Origin: a virus
Lineage: Duplodnaviria > Heunggongvirae > Uroviricota > Caudoviricetes
Strand: one strand, 5' to 3'
Length of the DNA: 12,944 nucleotides
Virus record (IMG/VR): IMGVR_UViG_2675903569_000005
This document shows positions 1,729 through 11,523 of the stretch, one piece after another. The stretch's first letter is position 1. Each line of letters starts with the position of its first letter. The notes beneath the pieces were generated by a model, which did not search any database, was not told the DNA's origin, and saw only the letters and a list, made by a program, of their open reading frames with translations. Both the position numbers and the translations under genes were made by a program.

Positions 1729-1884
1729 TTACTCCTCAGGTTCGTAAGCTGTGAAGACAGCGACCTCCGTCTGGCCGGTTCGGATTCGTACCTCGCAGAG
1801 GTCTTTCCTCGTTACCAGTGCCGTCACTATGACGGTTAAACAGATGACGATCAGGGCGATTAACATCGCCTTTTGCTGCTTCAT
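1729..1884 (-). CDS. hokD: Hok-family type I toxin (HokD/RelF-like), 51 aa
   Basis: Internal ATG at 1884 of the 70-aa track ORF gives MKQQKAMLIALIVICLTVIVTALVTRKDLCEVRIRTGQTEVAVFTAYEPEE, which matches my recollection of E. coli HokD throughout. AAGGAG lies 9 nt upstream of this ATG. Confidence 0.85.
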   Translation of the reverse strand: MKQQKAMLIALIVICLTVIVTALVTRKDLCEVRIRTGQTEVAVFTAYEPEE

Positions 1885-2143
1885 AGCCTGCTTCTCCTTG
1901 CCTTTCGGCACGTAAGAGGCTAACCTAGATTTGCCGTTCATAGATTGAGCCTCAGATTAATGTTAAGCGTCTTGCAGGACGCGTAATGTTAACTGGGGCT
2001 TTTCTCTATCTGCCTTTTGGTGTTCATGCCTGAGACAGATAGCCTCAAGCACCCGCAGTCATTCTACTTAACTAAGATTTCCCCGCAAACCGTTTTTGTC
2101 CGGCACAGTAAATATCCAACTAAACCAATGGCGTTCGCTGTAT

Positions 2144-3251: not shown

Positions 3252-3608
3252 TTATTCAGTTCTGGATTTTGTCGCCCTGCGTATCCGCGCTTTCGCGTTA
3301 CGCTCAATCTGAATTAGCTTTTCTATATTTTTTCGCCTTTCCCGCTCCTCCTGACGCAAGAGCCTTACATCATCTGCCAGTCTGGTTTCTCTTTTCGCCA
3401 CAGAGAGCATCCAGTCAAATGGCTCCACAACTGCACCGCAGATTTTACAGCGGACCTGACGCTCTTTTTCGTCAACCCGGACAGAGGCGTGATGACAATA
3501 TGGTCTTTCCGATGGCTCATAAAGAAAATTAACCTGATTACGAGGGTCATCCTCTTTTACCGGAAATAAAACGATATTGCTTAACTCATCCTCTGGTTTT
3601 ATTTCCAT
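3252..3608 (-). CDS. Hypothetical protein with Cys/His cluster (CHH ... CKIC) and a basic, probably coiled-coil C-terminus, 118 aa
   Basis: ATG at 3608 preceded by AAGGAGAGGAG. The track ORF extends in frame to a GTG at 3665 (137 aa), which has its own AGGAGG upstream, so the start is ambiguous. Confidence 0.5.
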   Translation of the reverse strand: MEIKPEDELSNIVLFPVKEDDPRNQVNFLYEPSERPYCHHASVRVDEKERQVRCKICGAVVEPFDWMLSVAKRETRLADDVRLLRQEERERRKNIEKLIQIERNAKARIRRATKSRTE

Positions 3609-3665
3609 GCTCCTCTCCTTTGATGCGAATGCCAGCGGTAATTGAAGCCTGATAGCTAATTTCAC

Positions 3666-4088
3666 TCACAGTACCGCCTCCTGAAAATTACCCTGATAGA
3701 AAGCCAGTACACGCTGCATAGCTTCACTCTTCCGGCACTCGCGACAGATTATGTTTAGGCGACTGTCGTAGCGACGTATTTCTCCGTCAGGTAACGACCA
3801 GATAAGGTCCGGATCAACCACAACCGGTTTCTTCAGCTTTGCCCTCGATAATTTTTTGCGGGCATTTTGCCAGTCTTTACGAGCCTGTTCAGACGGGAAT
3901 AACCCGTAGCCAGAATTGTATACATCGCCACTGGCAACCAGCTCTCTGGCCAGAACGCTCATCAGATATCTTGTTGCCCCAGTTTTAGTTTCCAGTTGTC
4001 GTAACGTCTCGCGCCCACTCTGGCGTACGAGTTCAACAACCTGTCCTTTAATTTTTTCCCGCTCTTCTTGTGTAAAAACTTTTGCCAC
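3666..4088 (-). CDS. Hypothetical early-region protein, 140 aa, directly downstream of the replication gene
   Basis: Track ORF with GTG start at 4088 and AGGAGG 4 nt upstream. Same strand and tight spacing with neighbours. No family recognised. Confidence 0.55.
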   Translation of the reverse strand: MAKVFTQEEREKIKGQVVELVRQSGRETLRQLETKTGATRYLMSVLARELVASGDVYNSGYGLFPSEQARKDWQNARKKLSRAKLKKPVVVDPDLIWSLPDGEIRRYDSRLNIICRECRKSEAMQRVLAFYQGNFQEAVL

Positions 4089-4128
4089 AAGCCCTCCTGA
4101 AAATTACCTCATGACCAGAAATTAACAC

Positions 4129-5205
4129 TTACCCCCTGAAGCCCGGCGGAATTTCGTTATCCGGTTCAGAAATATGATTCACACAACGCTGGTTGTTCGT
4201 GCCGCTTACCGGGAGCAACCAGGGGTTCTCAAAATTCCGGTCCGGTCCAAAAAACGTCGTCGCTCGCTGAACAAATTCCGTTCCCGTTTTCCCGGTAGCC
4301 GCCAAGTATCTTGCGTAACGCCTCACGCCATCCAGCATGGCCTCTGGTGGCACCCCCTCGCGTAATCTGGCCTTCCATGCACTGAAAGCGGATTTCTTCG
4401 GGTTTGCTCCGGCACGCAACGGGTACTCCCGCCAGACCTGTTCGAACACATCCGGATAATCCACTCGTCCCACAGACAGCCCGGTGTTTTCCGGGACTAC
4501 CCGATCGGCTTCCCGCTGAATGGCGAAATCGGCTTCAGGCTGCTGCAGTTGGTGTGATTGTTCCGGCCTTGGGGTCATCACCTGCTGCACAGCGCCCGAA
4601 TCGGCTTTCAGCGCATACGCTGAATCGGCTTCCGGTGTCGTGCCTGCTGGCTGACCAGGATTGACGGTCTGAACATCCCCTGCCTGGTTCGTGGCGTTTT
4701 TTACGCCATGGACCATAGTGTTTTGATCTTCTTGATCTGTATCTTTATCTGTATCTTTATCTGTCGTGACTCGTCGTGACATGTGCGTGACATTTCGTGA
4801 CGCGCCGTGACAATCGCCATTTTGTTCCCGCTTTCTTTCCCTCTCTCGCTGCGCCCTCTTGCGCTCTGCCGGAGATTTTGCGGTTTGCGAAATATTGCCG
4901 TTGTCCTCTTTAAGCACCTGGCGTTTTTCCCATCCAGTGATTAAATCACCATCAAGTACCCGCCCCTGCATCGTCTGCAAAATTGAATCAATTACCTCTT
5001 CTGTCACGTCGAGCGCACTTGCTAAATCTTCTGTCGTGACATCAATGTGACCTCGCGTGACATTTCGTGACGCGCTCACCAGGAGGTGGATATACACTGC
5101 CATCACTGTTGCAATTGGCTGCCCTGACACCCTGGCAATTGTTCGCCACTTAGGGTCATTTGGCATGTCATGCCATAATCTGAGCCAAGCGTTAGCCATA
5201 CTCAC
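4129..5205 (-). CDS. Putative phage replication initiation protein (YdaU/DUF1376-like N-terminus), 358 aa
   Basis: N-terminus MSMANAWLRLWHDMPNDPKWRTIARVSGQ... recalls YdaU/DUF1376 replisome-organiser proteins (family from memory). Sits at the lambda O position after cro and the cII-position gene. Central low-complexity linker TDKDTDKDTD. The coding sequence contains two clusters of CGTGAC repeats. Confidence 0.65.
   Translation of the reverse strand: MSMANAWLRLWHDMPNDPKWRTIARVSGQPIATVMAVYIHLLVSASRNVTRGHIDVTTEDLASALDVTEEVIDSILQTMQGRVLDGDLITGWEKRQVLKEDNGNISQTAKSPAERKRAQRERERKREQNGDCHGASRNVTHMSRRVTTDKDTDKDTDQEDQNTMVHGVKNATNQAGDVQTVNPGQPAGTTPEADSAYALKADSGAVQQVMTPRPEQSHQLQQPEADFAIQREADRVVPENTGLSVGRVDYPDVFEQVWREYPLRAGANPKKSAFSAWKARLREGVPPEAMLDGVRRYARYLAATGKTGTEFVQRATTFFGPDRNFENPWLLPVSGTNNQRCVNHISEPDNEIPPGFRG
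4765..4811. repeat. Iteron-like array: five CGTGAC hexamers at 10-11 bp spacing; candidate origin iterons
   Basis: CGTGAC at 4765, 4775, 4786, 4796 and 4806. Flanked at 4725..4762 by an AT-rich stretch with two GATC sites and a tandem GTATCTTTATCT x2. Confidence 0.5.
5035..5071. repeat. Second iteron-like cluster (CGTGAC/TGTGAC at about 10 bp spacing)
   Basis: Hexamers at 5035, 5046, 5056 and 5066. The 21-mer GCGTGACATTTCGTGACGCGC is identical at 4785..4805 and 5055..5075. An inverted GTCACG lies at 5003. Confidence 0.45.
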
Positions 5206-5270: not shown

Positions 5271-5696
5271 TCAATGTACTGCCACAGCATTTCCTGCCGG
5301 GCCACCACGGTTCATCTGATTGAAACCGGCGATTGCCACTGCGACAAAATCATCAGCGTCTCTCACCAGTCGCTCCCGCGTCTCCACCAGCTCCCGAAAA
5401 TAAGCTGAACTGTGGCTGCGCATTCTGGCCACCAGCAAAGGTGGCATTGCCTTTTCGATCGCTGGTAACAACGCCTGAATTTTTTCAACTGCATCAGGGG
5501 TGTCTTTCTCTACCCAGCGGAAAATTTTCTGGGTATTGCGAGCCAGGGCTTCCGGATGGCTGTCGTCATACAGTTCCGGGAACGTCATTCCCAGCTCGAA
5601 ATACGCTTTGGTAATTTTCGCAGCCGGTACTTTTTCGCCGTCCGGATGCGCCCAGGCATTCATCGCCATGCGGATGTGTTCATGCTTGATTTTCAT
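5271..5696 (-). CDS. YdaT-like prophage protein at the cII position, 141 aa
   Basis: Track ORF beginning MKIKHEHI..., which resembles my recollection of Rac YdaT. ATG overlaps the stop of the upstream cro-like gene (ATGA). Confidence 0.6.
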   Translation of the reverse strand: MKIKHEHIRMAMNAWAHPDGEKVPAAKITKAYFELGMTFPELYDDSHPEALARNTQKIFRWVEKDTPDAVEKIQALLPAIEKAMPPLLVARMRSHSSAYFRELVETRERLVRDADDFVAVAIAGFNQMNRGGPAGNAVAVH

Positions 5697-5923
5697 GAAT
5701 CCCCCCCTTGGTTAGAAGGCGGATTATGATCAGAACCGGGAATGACAACCGTCGGTATGTGTAACTCATATTTGAGCGCCCCGGCAGTGACTGCCTGAAT
5801 TAGCAACGCCCATTTCCACGGAACCTCTTCCCCCCACATGCTGACTGTGGTTTTTGACGTTCCTAGAGCTGCGGCTGTTTTAACAACTCCGCCAAAATAG
5901 CCTAATACTTCTGATTTTTTCAT
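5693..5923 (-). CDS. Cro/YdaS-like HTH regulator, 76 aa
   Basis: Internal ATG at 5923 with GGAG 7 nt upstream gives MKKSEVLGYFGGVVKTAAALGTSKTTVSMW..., a helix-turn-helix pattern. Divergent from the repressor gene. The long N-terminal extension of the track ORF is hydrophobic and looks like an artifact. Confidence 0.65.
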   Translation of the reverse strand: MKKSEVLGYFGGVVKTAAALGTSKTTVSMWGEEVPWKWALLIQAVTAGALKYELHIPTVVIPGSDHNPPSNQGGDS

Positions 5924-5951
5924 GAGTCGCTCCATAAAACTGAACGTCAAA

Positions 5952-6014
5952 AGTTTAATAATCAAAACCAAAAAAGTCAAGAAACAAAACCATCTGTGTT
6001 TTAAAATCAAAACA
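5952..6014. promoter_or_regulatory. Divergent immunity control region: PR-like promoter for cro (minus), PRM-like promoter for the repressor (plus), and two operator copies
   Basis: Perfect 18-bp palindrome TGTTTT-N6-AAAACA at 5997..6014; imperfect copy AGTTTA-N6-AAAACC at 5952..5969. Minus-strand TTGACT (5980..5975)-N17-TAAACT (5957..5952). Plus-strand TAAAAT at 6002..6007, 6 nt before the repressor ATG. Confidence 0.5.
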
Positions 6015-6652
6015 TGAGCAAGCAAACTATATCTGAACGCATAACCCAACGTATGCATGCGCTAAACCTGAAAGGCAAAGACCTTGTCAATGGCACTGGC
6101 GCATCAAAAGGCTCCGTAAGTCAATGGATGAACGGTGGAGGAGCGCCGTCCTCGCGTTACATAAGTTCACTGGCAAAAATATTGAAAGTAAACGAAAATT
6201 GGCTTCTTAATGGAGGAGAGTTAAATACAGGTGATTCGCTTGATCTATCTTTACCGCCGATAAAAACGGTTCCGCTACTATCACTTCAGCAGGCAGCAAG
6301 CTGGAGTGATTATATGAAAAATTCCTCAATAACCTCTTGTGTGCAGCTTGTCGGAGAAATCCCGGTCAATACCTTTGCAGTTGTTCTAGAGAGTGACAGT
6401 ATGTCAACATCTGGTGGGGGAGTTTCCATCCCAAATGGTTCAACAGTTTTTATTGATCCCGATCGAACCGTACAACCAGGAAATATTGTCCTTGCCTTAC
6501 CCAAAGGGACCACAACACCTGTCATTCGTAAACTGGAGATAGAAGGGCCGGATATTCTTTTAGTCCCCACGAATCCTCGCTACCCTTCAATTATGCTGGA
6601 TGATCTATCTTGCATATTGGGCGTATGCTTTAAAATTCAACAAGATATTTAA
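6014..6652 (+). CDS. CI-like prophage repressor: N-terminal XRE HTH plus C-terminal LexA/S24 peptidase domain, 212 aa
   Basis: HTH region GTGASKGSVSQWMNGG; C-terminal domain with a DSMS serine motif and a VIRKL lysine, as in LexA/lambda CI autocleavage domains. Divergent from the cro-like gene. No SD upstream of the ATG. Confidence 0.85.
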   Translation: MSKQTISERITQRMHALNLKGKDLVNGTGASKGSVSQWMNGGGAPSSRYISSLAKILKVNENWLLNGGELNTGDSLDLSLPPIKTVPLLSLQQAASWSDYMKNSSITSCVQLVGEIPVNTFAVVLESDSMSTSGGGVSIPNGSTVFIDPDRTVQPGNIVLALPKGTTTPVIRKLEIEGPDILLVPTNPRYPSIMLDDLSCILGVCFKIQQDI

Positions 6653-7801: not shown

Positions 7802-7854
7802 TTTCTGGTGACGTTTGGCGGTATCAGTTTTACTCCGTGACTGCTCTGCCGCCC
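7802..7854 (+). ncRNA. dicF: DicF small RNA (ftsZ-targeting sRNA of the dicB operon)
   Basis: TTTCTGGTGACGTTTGGCGGTATCAGTTTTACTCCGTGACTGCTCTGCCGCCC followed by TTTTT matches my recollection of the 53-nt DicF sequence, and it lies between ydfC and dicB as in Qin. Confidence 0.8.
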
Positions 7855-8028
7855 TTTTTAAAGTGAATTTTGTGATGTGGTGAATGCGGCTGAGCGCACG
7901 CGGAACAGTTAAAACCAAAAACAGTGTTATGGGTGGATTCTCTGTATCCGGCGTTAATTGTTAACTGGTTAACGTCACCTGGAGGCACCAGGCACCGCAT
8001 CACAAAACTCATTGTTGAGGGCGCGATA

Positions 8029-8217
8029 ATGAAAACGTTATTACCAAACGTTAATACGTCTGAAGGTTGTTTTGAAATTGGTGTCACTATCAGTAATCCT
8101 GTATTTACTGAAGAGGCCATTAACAAAAGAAAACACGAACGGGAGTTATTAAATAAAGTATGCATTGTTTCAATGCTGGCCCGTTTACGTCTGATGCCAA
8201 AAGGATGTGCACAATGA
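8029..8217 (+). CDS. dicB: Cell division inhibitor DicB, 62 aa
   Basis: ATG 8029 with GAGG upstream gives MKTLLPNVNTSEGCFEIGVTISNPVFTEEAINKRKHERELLNKVCIVSMLARLRLMPKGCAQ, matching recalled DicB. The track ORF carries an upstream in-frame extension. Confidence 0.85.
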   Translation: MKTLLPNVNTSEGCFEIGVTISNPVFTEEAINKRKHERELLNKVCIVSMLARLRLMPKGCAQ

Positions 8218-8477: not shown

Positions 8478-8519
8478 ATTTGGCGGTATCAGTTTTACTC
8501 CGTGACTGCTCTGCCGCCC
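8478..8519 (+). ncRNA. dicF: Second DicF copy; 5' end hidden in the N-run
   Basis: ATTTGGCGGTATCAGTTTTACTCCGTGACTGCTCTGCCGCCC plus TTTTT is identical to the 3' 41 nt of copy 1 including the terminator. The 5' 11-12 nt fall in or next to the gap. Confidence 0.55.
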
Positions 8520-8693
8520 TTTTTAAAGTGAATTTTGTGATGCGGTGAATGCGGCTAAGCGCACGCGGAACAGTTAAAACCAAAAACAGTGTTATGGGTG
8601 GATTCTCTGTATCCGGCGTTAATTGTTAACTGGTTAACGTCACCTGGAGGCACCAGGCACCGCATCACAAAATTCATTGTTGAGGACGCGATA

Positions 8694-8882
8694 ATGGAAA
8701 CGTTATTACCAAACGTTAATACGTCTGAAGGTTGTTTTGAAATTGGTGTCACTATCAGTAACCCTGTATTTACTGAAGATGCCATTAACAAGAGAAAACA
8801 CGAACGGGAGTTATTAAATAAAATATGCATTCTTTCAATGCTGGCCCGTTTACGTCCGATACAAAAAGGATGTGCACAATGA
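8694..8882 (+). CDS. dicB: DicB paralog (copy 2), 62 aa, diverged
   Basis: METLLPNVNTSEGCFEIGVTISNPVFTEDAINKRKHERELLNKICILSMLARLRPIQKGCAQ. Differs from copy 1 at K2E, E28D, V44I, V47L and in the C-terminal LRLMPK to LRPIQK. Confidence 0.75.
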   Translation: METLLPNVNTSEGCFEIGVTISNPVFTEDAINKRKHERELLNKICILSMLARLRPIQKGCAQ

Positions 8883-9162: not shown

Positions 9163-10933
9163 ATGAGTAAAGTCTTTATTTGCGCCGCCATTCCGGACGA
9201 ACAGGCAATAAAGGAAGAAGGTGCAGTCGCTGTAGCCACTGCCATTGAAGCCGGTGATGAACGTCGCGCCCGCGCAAAATTTCACTGGCAATTCCTGGAA
9301 CATNNNNNNNNNNNNNNNNTGAGGATAAACCCGGCATACCCCGCCCTGCCCTCGATTCCTGGGATGCTGAATATATGCAGGAAAACCGCTGGGATGAGGA
9401 GTCTGCTTCCTTTGTCCCGGTTGAGACTGAATCAGATCCGATGAACGTCACTTTTGACAAGTTGGCCCCTGAAGTACAGAACGCTGTCATGGTTAAGTTC
9501 GACACATGTGAAAACATCACCGTTGATATGGTTATTAGCGCACAGGAATTGTTGCAGGAAGACATGGCAACATTCGACGGACATATCGTTGAAGCGTTGA
9601 TGAAAATGCCAGAAGTTAACGCCATGTATCCGGAGCTTAAGCTGCATGCCATCGGGTGGGTTAAGCATAAATGTAAGCCTGGTGCCAAATGGCCCGAAAT
9701 TCAGGCAGAGATGCGCATCTGGAAAAAACGTCGCGAAGGTGAACGCAAGGAAACCGGAAAATACACGTCTGTTGTTGATCTCGCCCGCGCCAGAACCAAT
9801 CAACAGCACAGTGAAAATTCAACAGGAAAAATCAGCCCGGTCATTGCTGCCATTCATCGCGAATACAAGCAGACATGGAAAACACTGGATGACGAACTGG
9901 CCTACGCTCTCTGGCCTGGTGATGTGGATGCCNNNNNNNNNNNNNNNNNNNNNNNNNNNNNNNNNNNNNNNNNNNNNNNNNNNNNNNNNNNNNNNNNNNN
10001 NNNNNNNNNNNNNNNNNNNNNNNNNNGACTATTTTTGGCCTTGTCCGTGAACGTCCGATCGACATTCACAAAGACCCTGTGGCACTGAACAAATACATTA
10101 CTGAATACCTGACTACAAAGGGCGTGTTTGAAGATGAAGGAAGAAATCAGAGCGCAACTGATACTCTCTCGTCGCCAGTACCAGAAACTGATGCAGTGGA
10201 AACGGCAATGCCGGACAACGAAAAAACCGAATGCGAAATGGAAGACGAACCATCTGTAGAGCGTGAGGGACCGTTCTACTTCCTTTTCACCGATAAGGAC
10301 GGCGAAAAATACGGTCGCGCAAACAAACTTTCTGGTCTGGAAAAAGCACTGGCCCTGGGAGCTACGGAAATCACAAAAGAGGAATACTTCGCACGTAAAA
10401 ACGGCACGTACTCTGGTTCACAACAAAATACTGGTGCATCTGACACGATCGCACAACCAGAGCCGGTAAAAGTTACCGCTGACGAAGTAAACAAAATTAT
10501 GCAGGCAGCCAATATCAGCCAGCCTGACGCCAATAAGTTGCTTGCTGTATCACGTGGTGAATTTGTTGCAGGGATTAGCGACCCGAATGATCCGAAATGG
10601 GTGAAGGGGATTGAAACCCGCGATTCAGTGAATCAGAACCAGCAAGAAACGGAACAGAACGGCCAGAAAGCGGAACAAAACAGCCCAAATGCGTTACAAA
10701 ACGAGCCAGAAACGAAACAGCCTGAACCAGTGGCGCAACAGGAANNNNNNNNNNNNNNNNNNNNNNNNNNNNNNNNNNNNNNNNNNNNNNNNNNNNNNNN
10801 NNNNNNNNNNNNNNNNNNNNNNNNNNNNNNNNNNNAGGCGCTGAACATCCACACAAGGAGAACACTGACGGCAATCAGCATCACGATAGCGATAATGAAA
10901 CTGGCGAGACGGCAGATCACTCAATTAAGGTGA
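9163..10933 (+). CDS. RecE/YdfE-like N-terminal region (exonuclease VIII scaffold-like), broken by three N-gaps; may be one ORF with the downstream exonuclease domain, or a pseudogene
   Basis: Segments MSKVFICAAIPDEQAIKEEGAVAVATAIEAGDERRARAKFHWQFLEH / EDKPGIPRPALDSWDAEYMQENRWDEE... / TIFGLVRERPIDIHKDPVALNKYITEYL ... LLAVSRGEFVAGISDPNDPKWVKGIETRD resemble my recollection of YdfE/RecE N-terminal sequence. Each segment is open up to the adjoining gap. Frames across the gaps do not match the literal N lengths. Confidence 0.5.
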
Positions 10934-11523
10934 ACGGTCATCAAGAAATCACATCCACCAGCAGGACGTGTGACCATCTAATGATCGACCTTGAAACCAT
11001 GGGAAAAAATCCTGATGCCCCGATCATCTCAATAGGTGCAATATTTTTCGATCCGCAAACCGGAGATATGGGACCGGAATTTAGTAAGACTATCGATCTG
11101 GAAACTGCTGGCGGAGTCATTGATCGGGACACCATTAAATGGTGGCTTAAGCAATCACGCGAAGCGCAATCTGCCATTATGACCGATGAAATCCCGTTAG
11201 ATGATGCACTGTTACAATTGCGGGAATTTATCGACGAAAACTCCGGTGAATTTTTTGTTCAGGTCTGGGGAAATGGAGCCAACTTCGACAACACGATTTT
11301 GCGCCGTTCATACGAACGGCAGGGGATCCCCTGCCCGTGGCGTTACTACAACGATCGCGATGTACGCACAATCGTTGAGCTGGGGAAAGCCATAGACTTC
11401 GATGCCAGAACGGCTATTCCATTCGAAGGTGAGCGCCATAATGCACTTGATGACGCCCGTTACCAGGCAAAATACGTTTCAGTTATCTGGCAAAAACTGA
11501 TCCCGAATCAGGCTGATTTTTAA
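10930..11523 (+). CDS. DEDDh (DnaQ-like) 3'-5' exonuclease domain protein
   Basis: Exo I MIDLETMG, Exo II WGNGANFD and Exo III HNALDDARY motifs. This frame is also open upstream for 49 codons back to the gap at 10835, so the track start (GTG 10930) may be internal to a larger ORF; the first ATG is at 10981. Confidence 0.75.
   Translation: MNGHQEITSTSRTCDHLMIDLETMGKNPDAPIISIGAIFFDPQTGDMGPEFSKTIDLETAGGVIDRDTIKWWLKQSREAQSAIMTDEIPLDDALLQLREFIDENSGEFFVQVWGNGANFDNTILRRSYERQGIPCPWRYYNDRDVRTIVELGKAIDFDARTAIPFEGERHNALDDARYQAKYVSVIWQKLIPNQADF

Follow-up and report, generated by a model that had tools for sequence, protein, structure and literature searches.

A probable iteron-type replication origin within the initiator gene of a lambdoid prophage

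Embedded origins and the locus in the window

That a replication origin may lie inside the gene of its own initiator protein is a principle already well known. In ori-lambda, which is located within the O gene, an AT-rich tract that is sensitive to unwinding comes after the repeated sites for the initiator (PMC6022878). In the case of pSK41, the N-terminal domain of the Rep protein binds Rep boxes located centrally within rep, the protein can do without the linker that the ori encodes, and its C-terminal domain is specific to the host (PMC5703833). In phage SPP1, oriL lies within gene 38, where AB boxes bound by the protein stand beside an AT-rich unwinding element (PMC5737612, PMC6316719). 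Here we present a computational analysis of 12,944 nucleotides (nt) of DNA from a virus of the Caudoviricetes (IMG/VR record IMGVR_UViG_2675903569_000005; this whole stretch is referred to as the window), with a focus on a replication initiator gene of 356 amino acids (aa) on the minus strand, at 4129..5199, and on the repeats that this gene contains. Judged from sequence comparison, positions 4685..5071 are probably the replication origin of a lambdoid (Qin/Rac-like) prophage, carried within the initiator's own gene, and the best explanation of the locus, by analogy, is an iteron-type origin of the kind represented by ori-lambda, SPP1 oriL and the pSK41 RepA_N ori. Helically phased words, an AT-rich tract and an inverted repeat occur together inside an early-transcribed initiator gene, which is the layout of an iteron-type origin: the repeats are clustered in the initiator open reading frame (ORF), the AT-rich tract adjoins them, and the repeats co-vary with the initiator and are selected as DNA. 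In the literature, the coverage of which was incomplete, so that earlier work may exist, we found no description of this origin, of its word or of the two-array layout in this proteobacterial family.

The arrays are built from a single short word, which reads GTCACG on the coding strand and CGTGAC on the plus strand. Exact CGTGAC occurs 12 times in the window versus 5.1 expected, and nine of these copies lie within 310 bp, with the other three scattered. Array B (4765..4811, minus strand) consists of five GTCACG copies at gene nt 389, 399, 409, 420 and 430, corresponding to plus-strand CGTGAC at 4765, 4775, 4786, 4796 and 4806 with spacings of 10, 11, 10 and 10 bp; by Poisson arithmetic from the window rate, the probability of five CGTGAC in 47 nt is about 2e-11. 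Array A (5035..5071, minus strand) reads GTCACG, GTCACG, GTCACa and GTCACG at gene nt 129, 139, 149 and 160. An earlier reading of this DNA, made from the sequence alone (hereafter the sequence-only reading), had counted five CGTGAC hexamers in the first of these clusters and four in the second, all phased at 10-11 bp; the five and the phasing are confirmed, whereas the second cluster contains three exact copies (5035, 5056 and 5066) and a phased fourth site at 5046..5051 that reads TGTGAC (GTCAC-A on the coding strand). A single inverted copy at 5003..5008 (plus strand) was missing from its list. Nine phased copies, the variant included, and one inverted copy are thus all contained within 310 bp of the gene. 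The exact 21-bp repeat that had been reported, GCGTGACATTTCGTGACGCGC, is indeed present exactly twice (4785..4805 and 5055..5075; 0 expected), and a period-10 array at 4763..4812 was found independently by Tandem Repeats Finder. No known RNA family was found by Rfam in 4100..5200.

The 10-11 nt spacing places the word in all three reading frames, where it codes C-H, S-R and V-T in turn, and the translation over the repeats runs ...GASRNVTHMSRRVTTDKDTDKDTDQEDQ..., with ASRNVT present twice in the protein; the two copies of the 21-bp repeat are in the same frame, 270 nt or 90 codons apart. The sequence-only reading had assigned the repeats to the linker between protein domains. This holds for array B, which codes CHGASRNVTHMSRRVT, the start of the interdomain linker, but not for array A, which codes A43-T55; in the N-terminal domain, these residues form the surface loop that joins helix 29-45 to the helix-turn-helix. 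The inverted copy codes D64-V65-T66, the turn of that helix-turn-helix.

Directly beyond array B lies an AT-rich tract (4716..4764), a putative DNA-unwinding element, which reads (GATAAA/GATACA)n on the coding strand and codes DKDTDKDTDQEDQN; array B and this (GATAAA)n tract together code CHGASRNVTHMSRRVTTDKDTDKDTDQEDQ straight after the N-terminal domain. The GC content of the gene reaches its minimum of 0.35 at 4710..4769, with flanks of 0.55-0.63, and Tandem Repeats Finder reported a period-12 array of 2.9 copies of TCTTTATCTGTA at 4730..4764. Among 52 homologous loci, the 50 nt past the last copy of array B had an AT content of 0.64 versus 0.45 gene-wide (Wilcoxon p 2e-10). Nearly all of these tracts read (A/C/T)CAGATAAAGATAAAGAT..., whatever the word or the host GC content, and the AGATAAAGATA motif is nearly universal past array B, GC-rich hosts included; in a Castellaniella gene, for example, the tract has an AT content of 0.70 and the whole gene one of 0.35. 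Conservation of the AT tract regardless of host GC content indicates that a D/K-rich linker is written in the most AT-rich codons available. The AT tract, its tandem repeat and two GATC sites (4725 and 4734, inside the tract) are all present as the sequence-only reading had noted, but the GATC sites are not conserved: both are absent from the AT tracts of most relatives, and GATC is not enriched in the window as a whole (37 versus 47 expected). GATC/Dam sites were accordingly dropped as a part of the element.

An inverted repeat (4685..4715) follows beyond the AT tract, with a 13-bp stem on the plus strand (G-T pairs counted) and a 5-nt loop; as DNA it folds with -10.9 kcal/mol (z -5.7). The homologue in Stx phage 75/02 retains the hairpin, in which the pair that closes the loop has undergone a compensatory change from T:A to A:T. 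Perfect inverted repeats of at least 7 bp within 80 nt past the AT tract were found in 17 of 66 loci versus 40 of 546 control windows (p 2e-5), with stem sequences that vary from locus to locus. The inverted repeat appears to belong to the element. The iterons and the AT region, folded as single strands, were unremarkable (z -0.9).

Compared with ori-lambda, the locus has the same general plan. The origin lies within the initiator gene at almost the same place (lambda iterons at O gene nt 349-433; array B at nt 389-435), repeated sites are again followed by an AT-rich tract, the gene comes after cro and cII genes and is traversed by early transcription, and a Ren-like gene lies downstream in both. 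The word grammar is different: lambda has four units of 18-20 bp with internal inverted symmetry and spacings of 20, 24 and 23 bp (PMC6022878), whereas the window has direct words of 6-7 bp every 10-11 bp. Lambda has one array, and here there are two, about 260 bp apart, plus an inverted copy. In lambda the P protein brings in DnaB; here there is no loader gene but a DnaT-like tail. These departures from lambda (short direct words at each turn, a second array within the domain-coding part and a near-universal (GATAAA)n tract) concern details. The resemblance to ori-lambda drawn by the sequence-only reading therefore stands for the layout inside the initiator gene, but not as kinship: as a relative of lambda O the initiator was rejected, with no Phage_rep_O match and an hhalign probability of 0.1 for the family profile against lambda O.

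Of the three precedents, pSK41 Rep (RepA_N) has the closest protein architecture, with three parts, of which the N-terminal one is a winged-helix domain of about 120 aa that structurally resembles DnaD. As in pSK41-type plasmids, the N-terminal domain and its sites are swapped as a unit against a constant C-terminal domain (pPR9 in the one case; the window gene versus that of Stx phage 75/02 in the other). Unlike pSK41, a Firmicutes plasmid with PF06970, the present element is a phage of Proteobacteria without a PF06970 match, has an extra array in the N-terminal coding part as well as the (GATAAA)n tract, and ends in a copy of the DnaT tail, whereas the pSK41 protein's C-terminal domain binds the DnaG primase. 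The locus shares with SPP1 G38P/oriL the plan of a repeat-built origin embedded in the organizer gene beside an AT-rich tract, and "phage replisome organizer" is also the NCBI name for close homologues of the window protein. SPP1 differs in having a second origin, oriR, elsewhere, and its own loader and helicase, neither of which is encoded in the window; a relationship to SPP1 G38P was rejected as hhalign gave no similarity.

Conservation of the arrays and selection on the DNA

Of 5426 complete E. coli genomes, 2699 contain the DNA of the initiator gene, and many E. coli chromosomes match it at 100% identity. Identity is 98-99% in three isolated phages, vB_EcoS-689R5, Tritos and Evi, and a scan of IMG/VR with the family alignment yielded E. 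coli copies only, all of them 100% identical. When one genome was scanned for each bacterial species, 71 loci were obtained; the analysis covered 66 non-redundant loci from many genera in all. Arrays were called by a simple 6-mer count, namely at least three copies in region A and at least two copies of the same word in region B. A 6-mer with at least three copies was found in region A of 47 of the 66 loci, and in 43 of these 47 region B repeated the word of region A at least twice, versus 1.9% in a cross-locus control. Word copies numbered 146 in 10.3 kb of region B versus 5 in 15.3 kb of the remaining coding sequence. Across loci, the prevailing spacings were 10 bp, seen 149 times, and 11 bp, seen 35 times, with a minor peak at 20-21 bp, and all three reading frames were used by the word in 39 of 47 loci. 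Whether homologous initiator genes carry repeats at the same place had been named in the sequence-only reading as a point to check; in most of the 66 loci they do so at both positions, with the word changing in step in both arrays.

The words found were GTCACG, GTAACG, CGTCAC, CGAACG/GAACGC, GCAACG, GTGACG and TGTAAC. GTCAC(G) occurs at 129, 139, 149, 160 and about 388-418 in Aeromonas phage pAEv1818 and Pseudomonas phage phi1 (about 70% aa identity). The metagenomic podovirus ct2G2228 (48% identity) has CGAACGC at 125, 137 and 147 and at 315-366, and Ralstonia phage Hennie (38% identity) has GCAACG at 130-182 and 401-431. An exact inverted copy at gene nt 192 was present in about half of the GTCACG-type loci. 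Pseudomonas loci contain GTCACG, CGAACG or GTGACG, and Enterobacterales loci contain GTCACG, GTAACG or CGTCAC; the word hence tracks the element and not the host, which argues that a protein of the element itself reads it. Among the homologues, many different C-terminal modules are found joined to the N-terminal domain. The loop coded by array A is a hot spot of insertion and deletion (gene nt about 130-240), being longer and containing extra word copies in the loci L089, L113 and L156; the last of these, from Pseudomonas sp. PA15, has up to 10 word copies in the loop, giving runs such as VPVCDAPVTPCDVTCDGGDADVTPVT.

Selection on the DNA was assessed by codon usage in 21 homologues from different genera, picked by a protein motif alone and having 57-74% aa identity; aa-invariant, degenerate residues at positions 1-70 were compared by a Mann-Whitney test. 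The mean frequency of the top codon was 0.98 under the word versus 0.54 elsewhere (p 2e-5). Codons of V47 (GTC), T48 (ACG), G50 (GGT), H51 (CAC), V54 (GTC) and T55 (ACG) were the same in 21 of 21 sequences each, A43 was GCG in 19 of 21 and S44 was TCA in 20 of 21; 21 other invariant residues used two to six codons. R49, the third base of which falls in a spacer, varied freely among four codons. Under the inverted copy, V65 was GTG in all 19 sequences that have valine there. A word in three frames combined with frozen synonymous sites rules out a purely protein-level duplication, and the repeats are, by these comparisons, a DNA-level feature under selection and not a by-product of an amino-acid repeat. 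Loop length here is evidently dictated by the DNA element as well, and the gene thus offers a case of overlapping constraints in which codon choice and even the length of a protein loop are set by a DNA element.

Two relatives with other N-terminal modules were compared with the window gene. The initiator of Stx phage 75/02 (a Shigella phage; locus L001) has only its C-terminal half in common with the window gene, and its N-terminal module is unrelated. Its word, AAGGGGCT, has exactly four copies in 5.5 kb, each of them within the rep gene: nt 185 and 196 and, in inverted orientation, 441 and 452. The two pairs of words (L001 3131..3149 and 3387..3405) are mutually inverted, with 11 bp within a pair; one falls within the N-terminal coding part, and the other immediately precedes a linker encoded by GAACAG x4. 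In ydaU of the E. coli K-12 Rac prophage (locus L162, 2620..3477), three direct copies of (A)TGTTCAA (gene nt 148, 392 and 426) are accompanied by an inverted one at 452. YdaU has the same neighbors as the window gene (YdaS/Cro-like and YdaT-like upstream, YdaW/DUF977 downstream), the same linker (AATAAAGATACAGATAAAGATC) followed by a CCCCCCC..GGGGG inverted repeat, and the tail ...IPPGFRG; it differs in that its N-terminal domain is DUF1376 and that a DnaC-like gene, ydaV, follows. The N-terminal modules of YdaU and the Stx phage 75/02 protein follow the same plan as that of the window gene, each with words of its own. Rac was reported to have an active origin, oriJ (PMC3945230), and ydaU may be its site, which is a lead only.

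The comparison across loci supports the origin proposed by the sequence-only reading in that the arrays are conserved, selection acts at the DNA level, and an AT tract adjoins them in an initiator gene that occupies a lambda-like position. A likely origin is thereby located for a module carried by about half of the complete E. coli genomes and by several temperate phages, with relatives in Gamma-, Beta- and Alphaproteobacteria, most copies of which are annotated as "hypothetical protein" with the origin unmarked. In about 50 initiator/word pairs, a single conserved scaffold is combined with six or more different words; these pairs constitute a resource for studying how this class of winged-helix initiators reads DNA, and could be used to predict which prophages in one cell do or do not share origin specificity.

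The initiator, a proposed mechanism and rival explanations

Along its entire length, the initiator protein is matched by phrog_3729 "replication initiation protein" (E 1e-255), and deposited phage records label the gene replication protein O, replisome organizer or primosomal protein I. The sequence-only reading had placed this gene at 4129..5205; its assignment as a replication initiator is upheld, but the start is ATG at 5199 and not GTG at 5205, the position chosen by the ORF lister, and homologues beginning with MAN support this start codon. The N-terminal domain (residues 1 to about 125, coded at 4825..5199, minus strand), which is the presumed origin-binding domain, has a winged-helix fold that superposes most closely on the DnaD N-terminal domain and RepA_N. 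A Foldseek search with the initiator protein gave nothing significant, and no match to RepA_N (PF06970) was found in it.

We propose that the N-terminal winged-helix domain binds the GTCACG words, which, being one helical turn apart, would present the bound protein on one face of the DNA. Array B would act as the core, with array A, about 260 bp away, and the inverted copy at 5003..5008 as auxiliary sites, and oligomerization of the bound protein could bring arrays A and B together by looping. The resulting nucleoprotein complex, aided by transcription from the early promoter through the gene, would then melt the (GATAAA)n tract at 4716..4764, which is presumably bounded by the inverted repeat at 4685..4715. 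The C-terminal part of the protein, ending in the copy of the DnaT tail, would finally recruit the helicase-loading machinery of the host.

Helicase loading is the least certain of these steps. No P-, DnaC- or DnaB-like gene for a helicase or its loader was found next to the initiator gene or in the window, whereas relatives in Stx phage 75/02 and in phages of Aeromonas, Pseudomonas and Ralstonia have a DnaC- or DnaB-like gene directly downstream. The window protein ends in 25 residues, QRCVNHISEPDNEIPPGFRG (coded at 4132..4206, minus strand), that are near-identical to the C-terminal tail of host DnaT: residues 333-356 align to positions 156-179 of the 179 positions of the DnaT profile NF002770, and the DnaT PDB chains 6aep, 2ru8 and 9zbt_D match the tail with E values of 1e-3 to 2e-2. 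The similarity to DnaT is confined to these last 24-25 residues, and the window protein gave no match to PF17948 (DnaT C-terminal domain), a family recorded for some homologues that have other C-terminal modules. In DnaT, the C-terminal domain is a binding partner of PriA/PriB and assembles into filaments on single-stranded DNA (PMC13377028). The tail looks like a short motif that plugs into the host primosome, a presumed handle for host factors, and suggests direct recruitment of host machinery; together with the lack of a loader gene, it suggests a helicase-loading route unlike that of lambda P. Rac YdaU, the protein of Stx phage 75/02 and several homologues that differ in their C-terminal modules likewise end in the tail ...IP(P/K)GFRG.

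Several observations weigh against the origin and its proposed reader. By the 6-mer count, about a quarter of the loci show no clear two-array pattern, and array A could be regulatory instead of a part of the origin. The N-terminal domain has no above-threshold profile match in Pfam or NCBIfam: PF09681 reached E 0.13 (12.7 bits, cut-off 23.3) and TIGR01714 reached E 0.016 (15.4 bits, cut-off 49.8). These two weak alignments span residues 5-122 and nearly the whole of the profiles, and at E up to 10 Pfam gave nothing else for the initiator protein than the sub-threshold PF09681 alignment. The description of the PF09681/TIGR01714 family mentions a low-complexity stretch after the domain in which direct origin repeats are reflected, and the stretch coded by array B and the (GATAAA)n tract corresponds to it. 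A published table gives pfam09681 the label "origin of phage replication" (PMC3764933). Residues 67-77, predicted to form the recognition helix, make up an acidic segment without residues specific to a word group, and the winged-helix core outside the iteron-coded stretches has almost no such residues. The sole segment outside those stretches that separates the GTCACG from the CGAACG group is 101-117 (window positions about 4849..4899), a basic stretch after the wing with a 9-residue insertion/deletion, a change at K114 and a Q117 to W replacement. This segment is a candidate specificity determinant.

A further proposal makes array A self-referential: the words that are recognized would encode loop 43-55 (and 64-66) of the very domain that recognizes them, and this loop would contact the DNA. 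If so, a change of word would alter the binding site and its reader in one step, which would explain how specificities (GTCACG, CGAACG, GCAACG and others) arose in step in the arrays and the protein. We regard this as decidedly improbable, and the basic segment 101-117 is a more ordinary candidate for the reader than the array A loop.

The rival explanation that survives best is that the arrays are operator-like regulatory sites, for self-repression, transcription block or control of an antisense promoter, with replication starting elsewhere; we consider it unlikely. Array A is situated near the beginning of the gene, so that protein bound there could obstruct transcription, and the binding sites of lambda CII are likewise direct repeats 10 bp apart inside genes. 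GTGACA on the plus strand resembles a -35 hexamer, and a promoter-like site antisense to the initiator gene is listed at 4787..4814 (plus strand); however, the number of promoter-like sites is at the chance level (3 versus 3.3 expected), and the words CGAACG and GCAACG of other loci are not -35-like. An antisense promoter built from the words was rejected on these two grounds. Moreover, phages with differing neighboring regulators keep the arrays together with the N-terminal domain, and array B is tied to a conserved AT tract and an inverted repeat, a combination that is an origin signature and not an operator signature. Operator and origin functions are also compatible, as iterons commonly autoregulate too.

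It is very improbable that the words are sites for a host protein, or that the (GATAAA)n tract is mainly a recombination joint between N- and C-terminal modules, with neither being a functional part of an origin. The tract lies exactly where homology to the Stx phage 75/02 gene starts, it is common to genes with unrelated N-terminal domains such as Rac YdaU, and the N-terminal domain occurs with many C-terminal modules, all of which would fit a joint. A joint leaves the helically phased arrays and the frozen synonymous sites unexplained, however, and is compatible with the role of an unwinding element, so that it would be an addition to the origin reading. Host proteins as readers are disfavored by words that differ between elements of the same host genus, and DnaA-box-like sites are at the expected number (28 versus 27), with none in the core. 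Last, the sequence-only reading had itself raised the objection that the repeats might be the mere DNA shadow of an internal coding duplication without DNA function, for which the doubled ASRNVT and the same-frame 21-bp repeat 90 codons apart could be cited, but this is almost certainly wrong, given the three-frame use of the word, the synonymous sites frozen under it while other invariant residues use several codons, and the concerted change of both arrays in other-word lineages, which alters the encoded amino acids.

Neighboring genes and other features of the window

Upstream of the initiator gene, on the same strand, are a YdaT/CII-like gene (5271..5696) and a P22-Cro-like gene (5693..6058). 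An S24 repressor gene (6014..6652) has the divergent orientation. A DUF977/Ren-like gene (3666..4088) lies downstream of the initiator gene and is followed by a zinc-ribbon gene (3252..3665).

Elsewhere in the window, three ORFs that follow one another with slight overlaps on the plus strand (9375..10088, 10079..10933 and 10930..11523) match successive parts of the 823-aa RecE-like exonuclease family phrog_2082. The RecE-like gene looks to be broken by frameshifts, which suggests that the prophage is partly decayed. A toxin-antitoxin system of the hok/sok type is represented by a MokW/Hok-like ORF at 1729..1941 and a sok antisense RNA at 1879..2054 (112 bits), both on the minus strand. The window also contains a direct duplication, 7814..8113 and 8479..8778, with an offset of 665 bp and at least 300 nt at 98% identity, which yields two copies of the DicF small RNA at 7803..7854 and 8478..8519, the second of which is 5'-truncated in the Rfam match.

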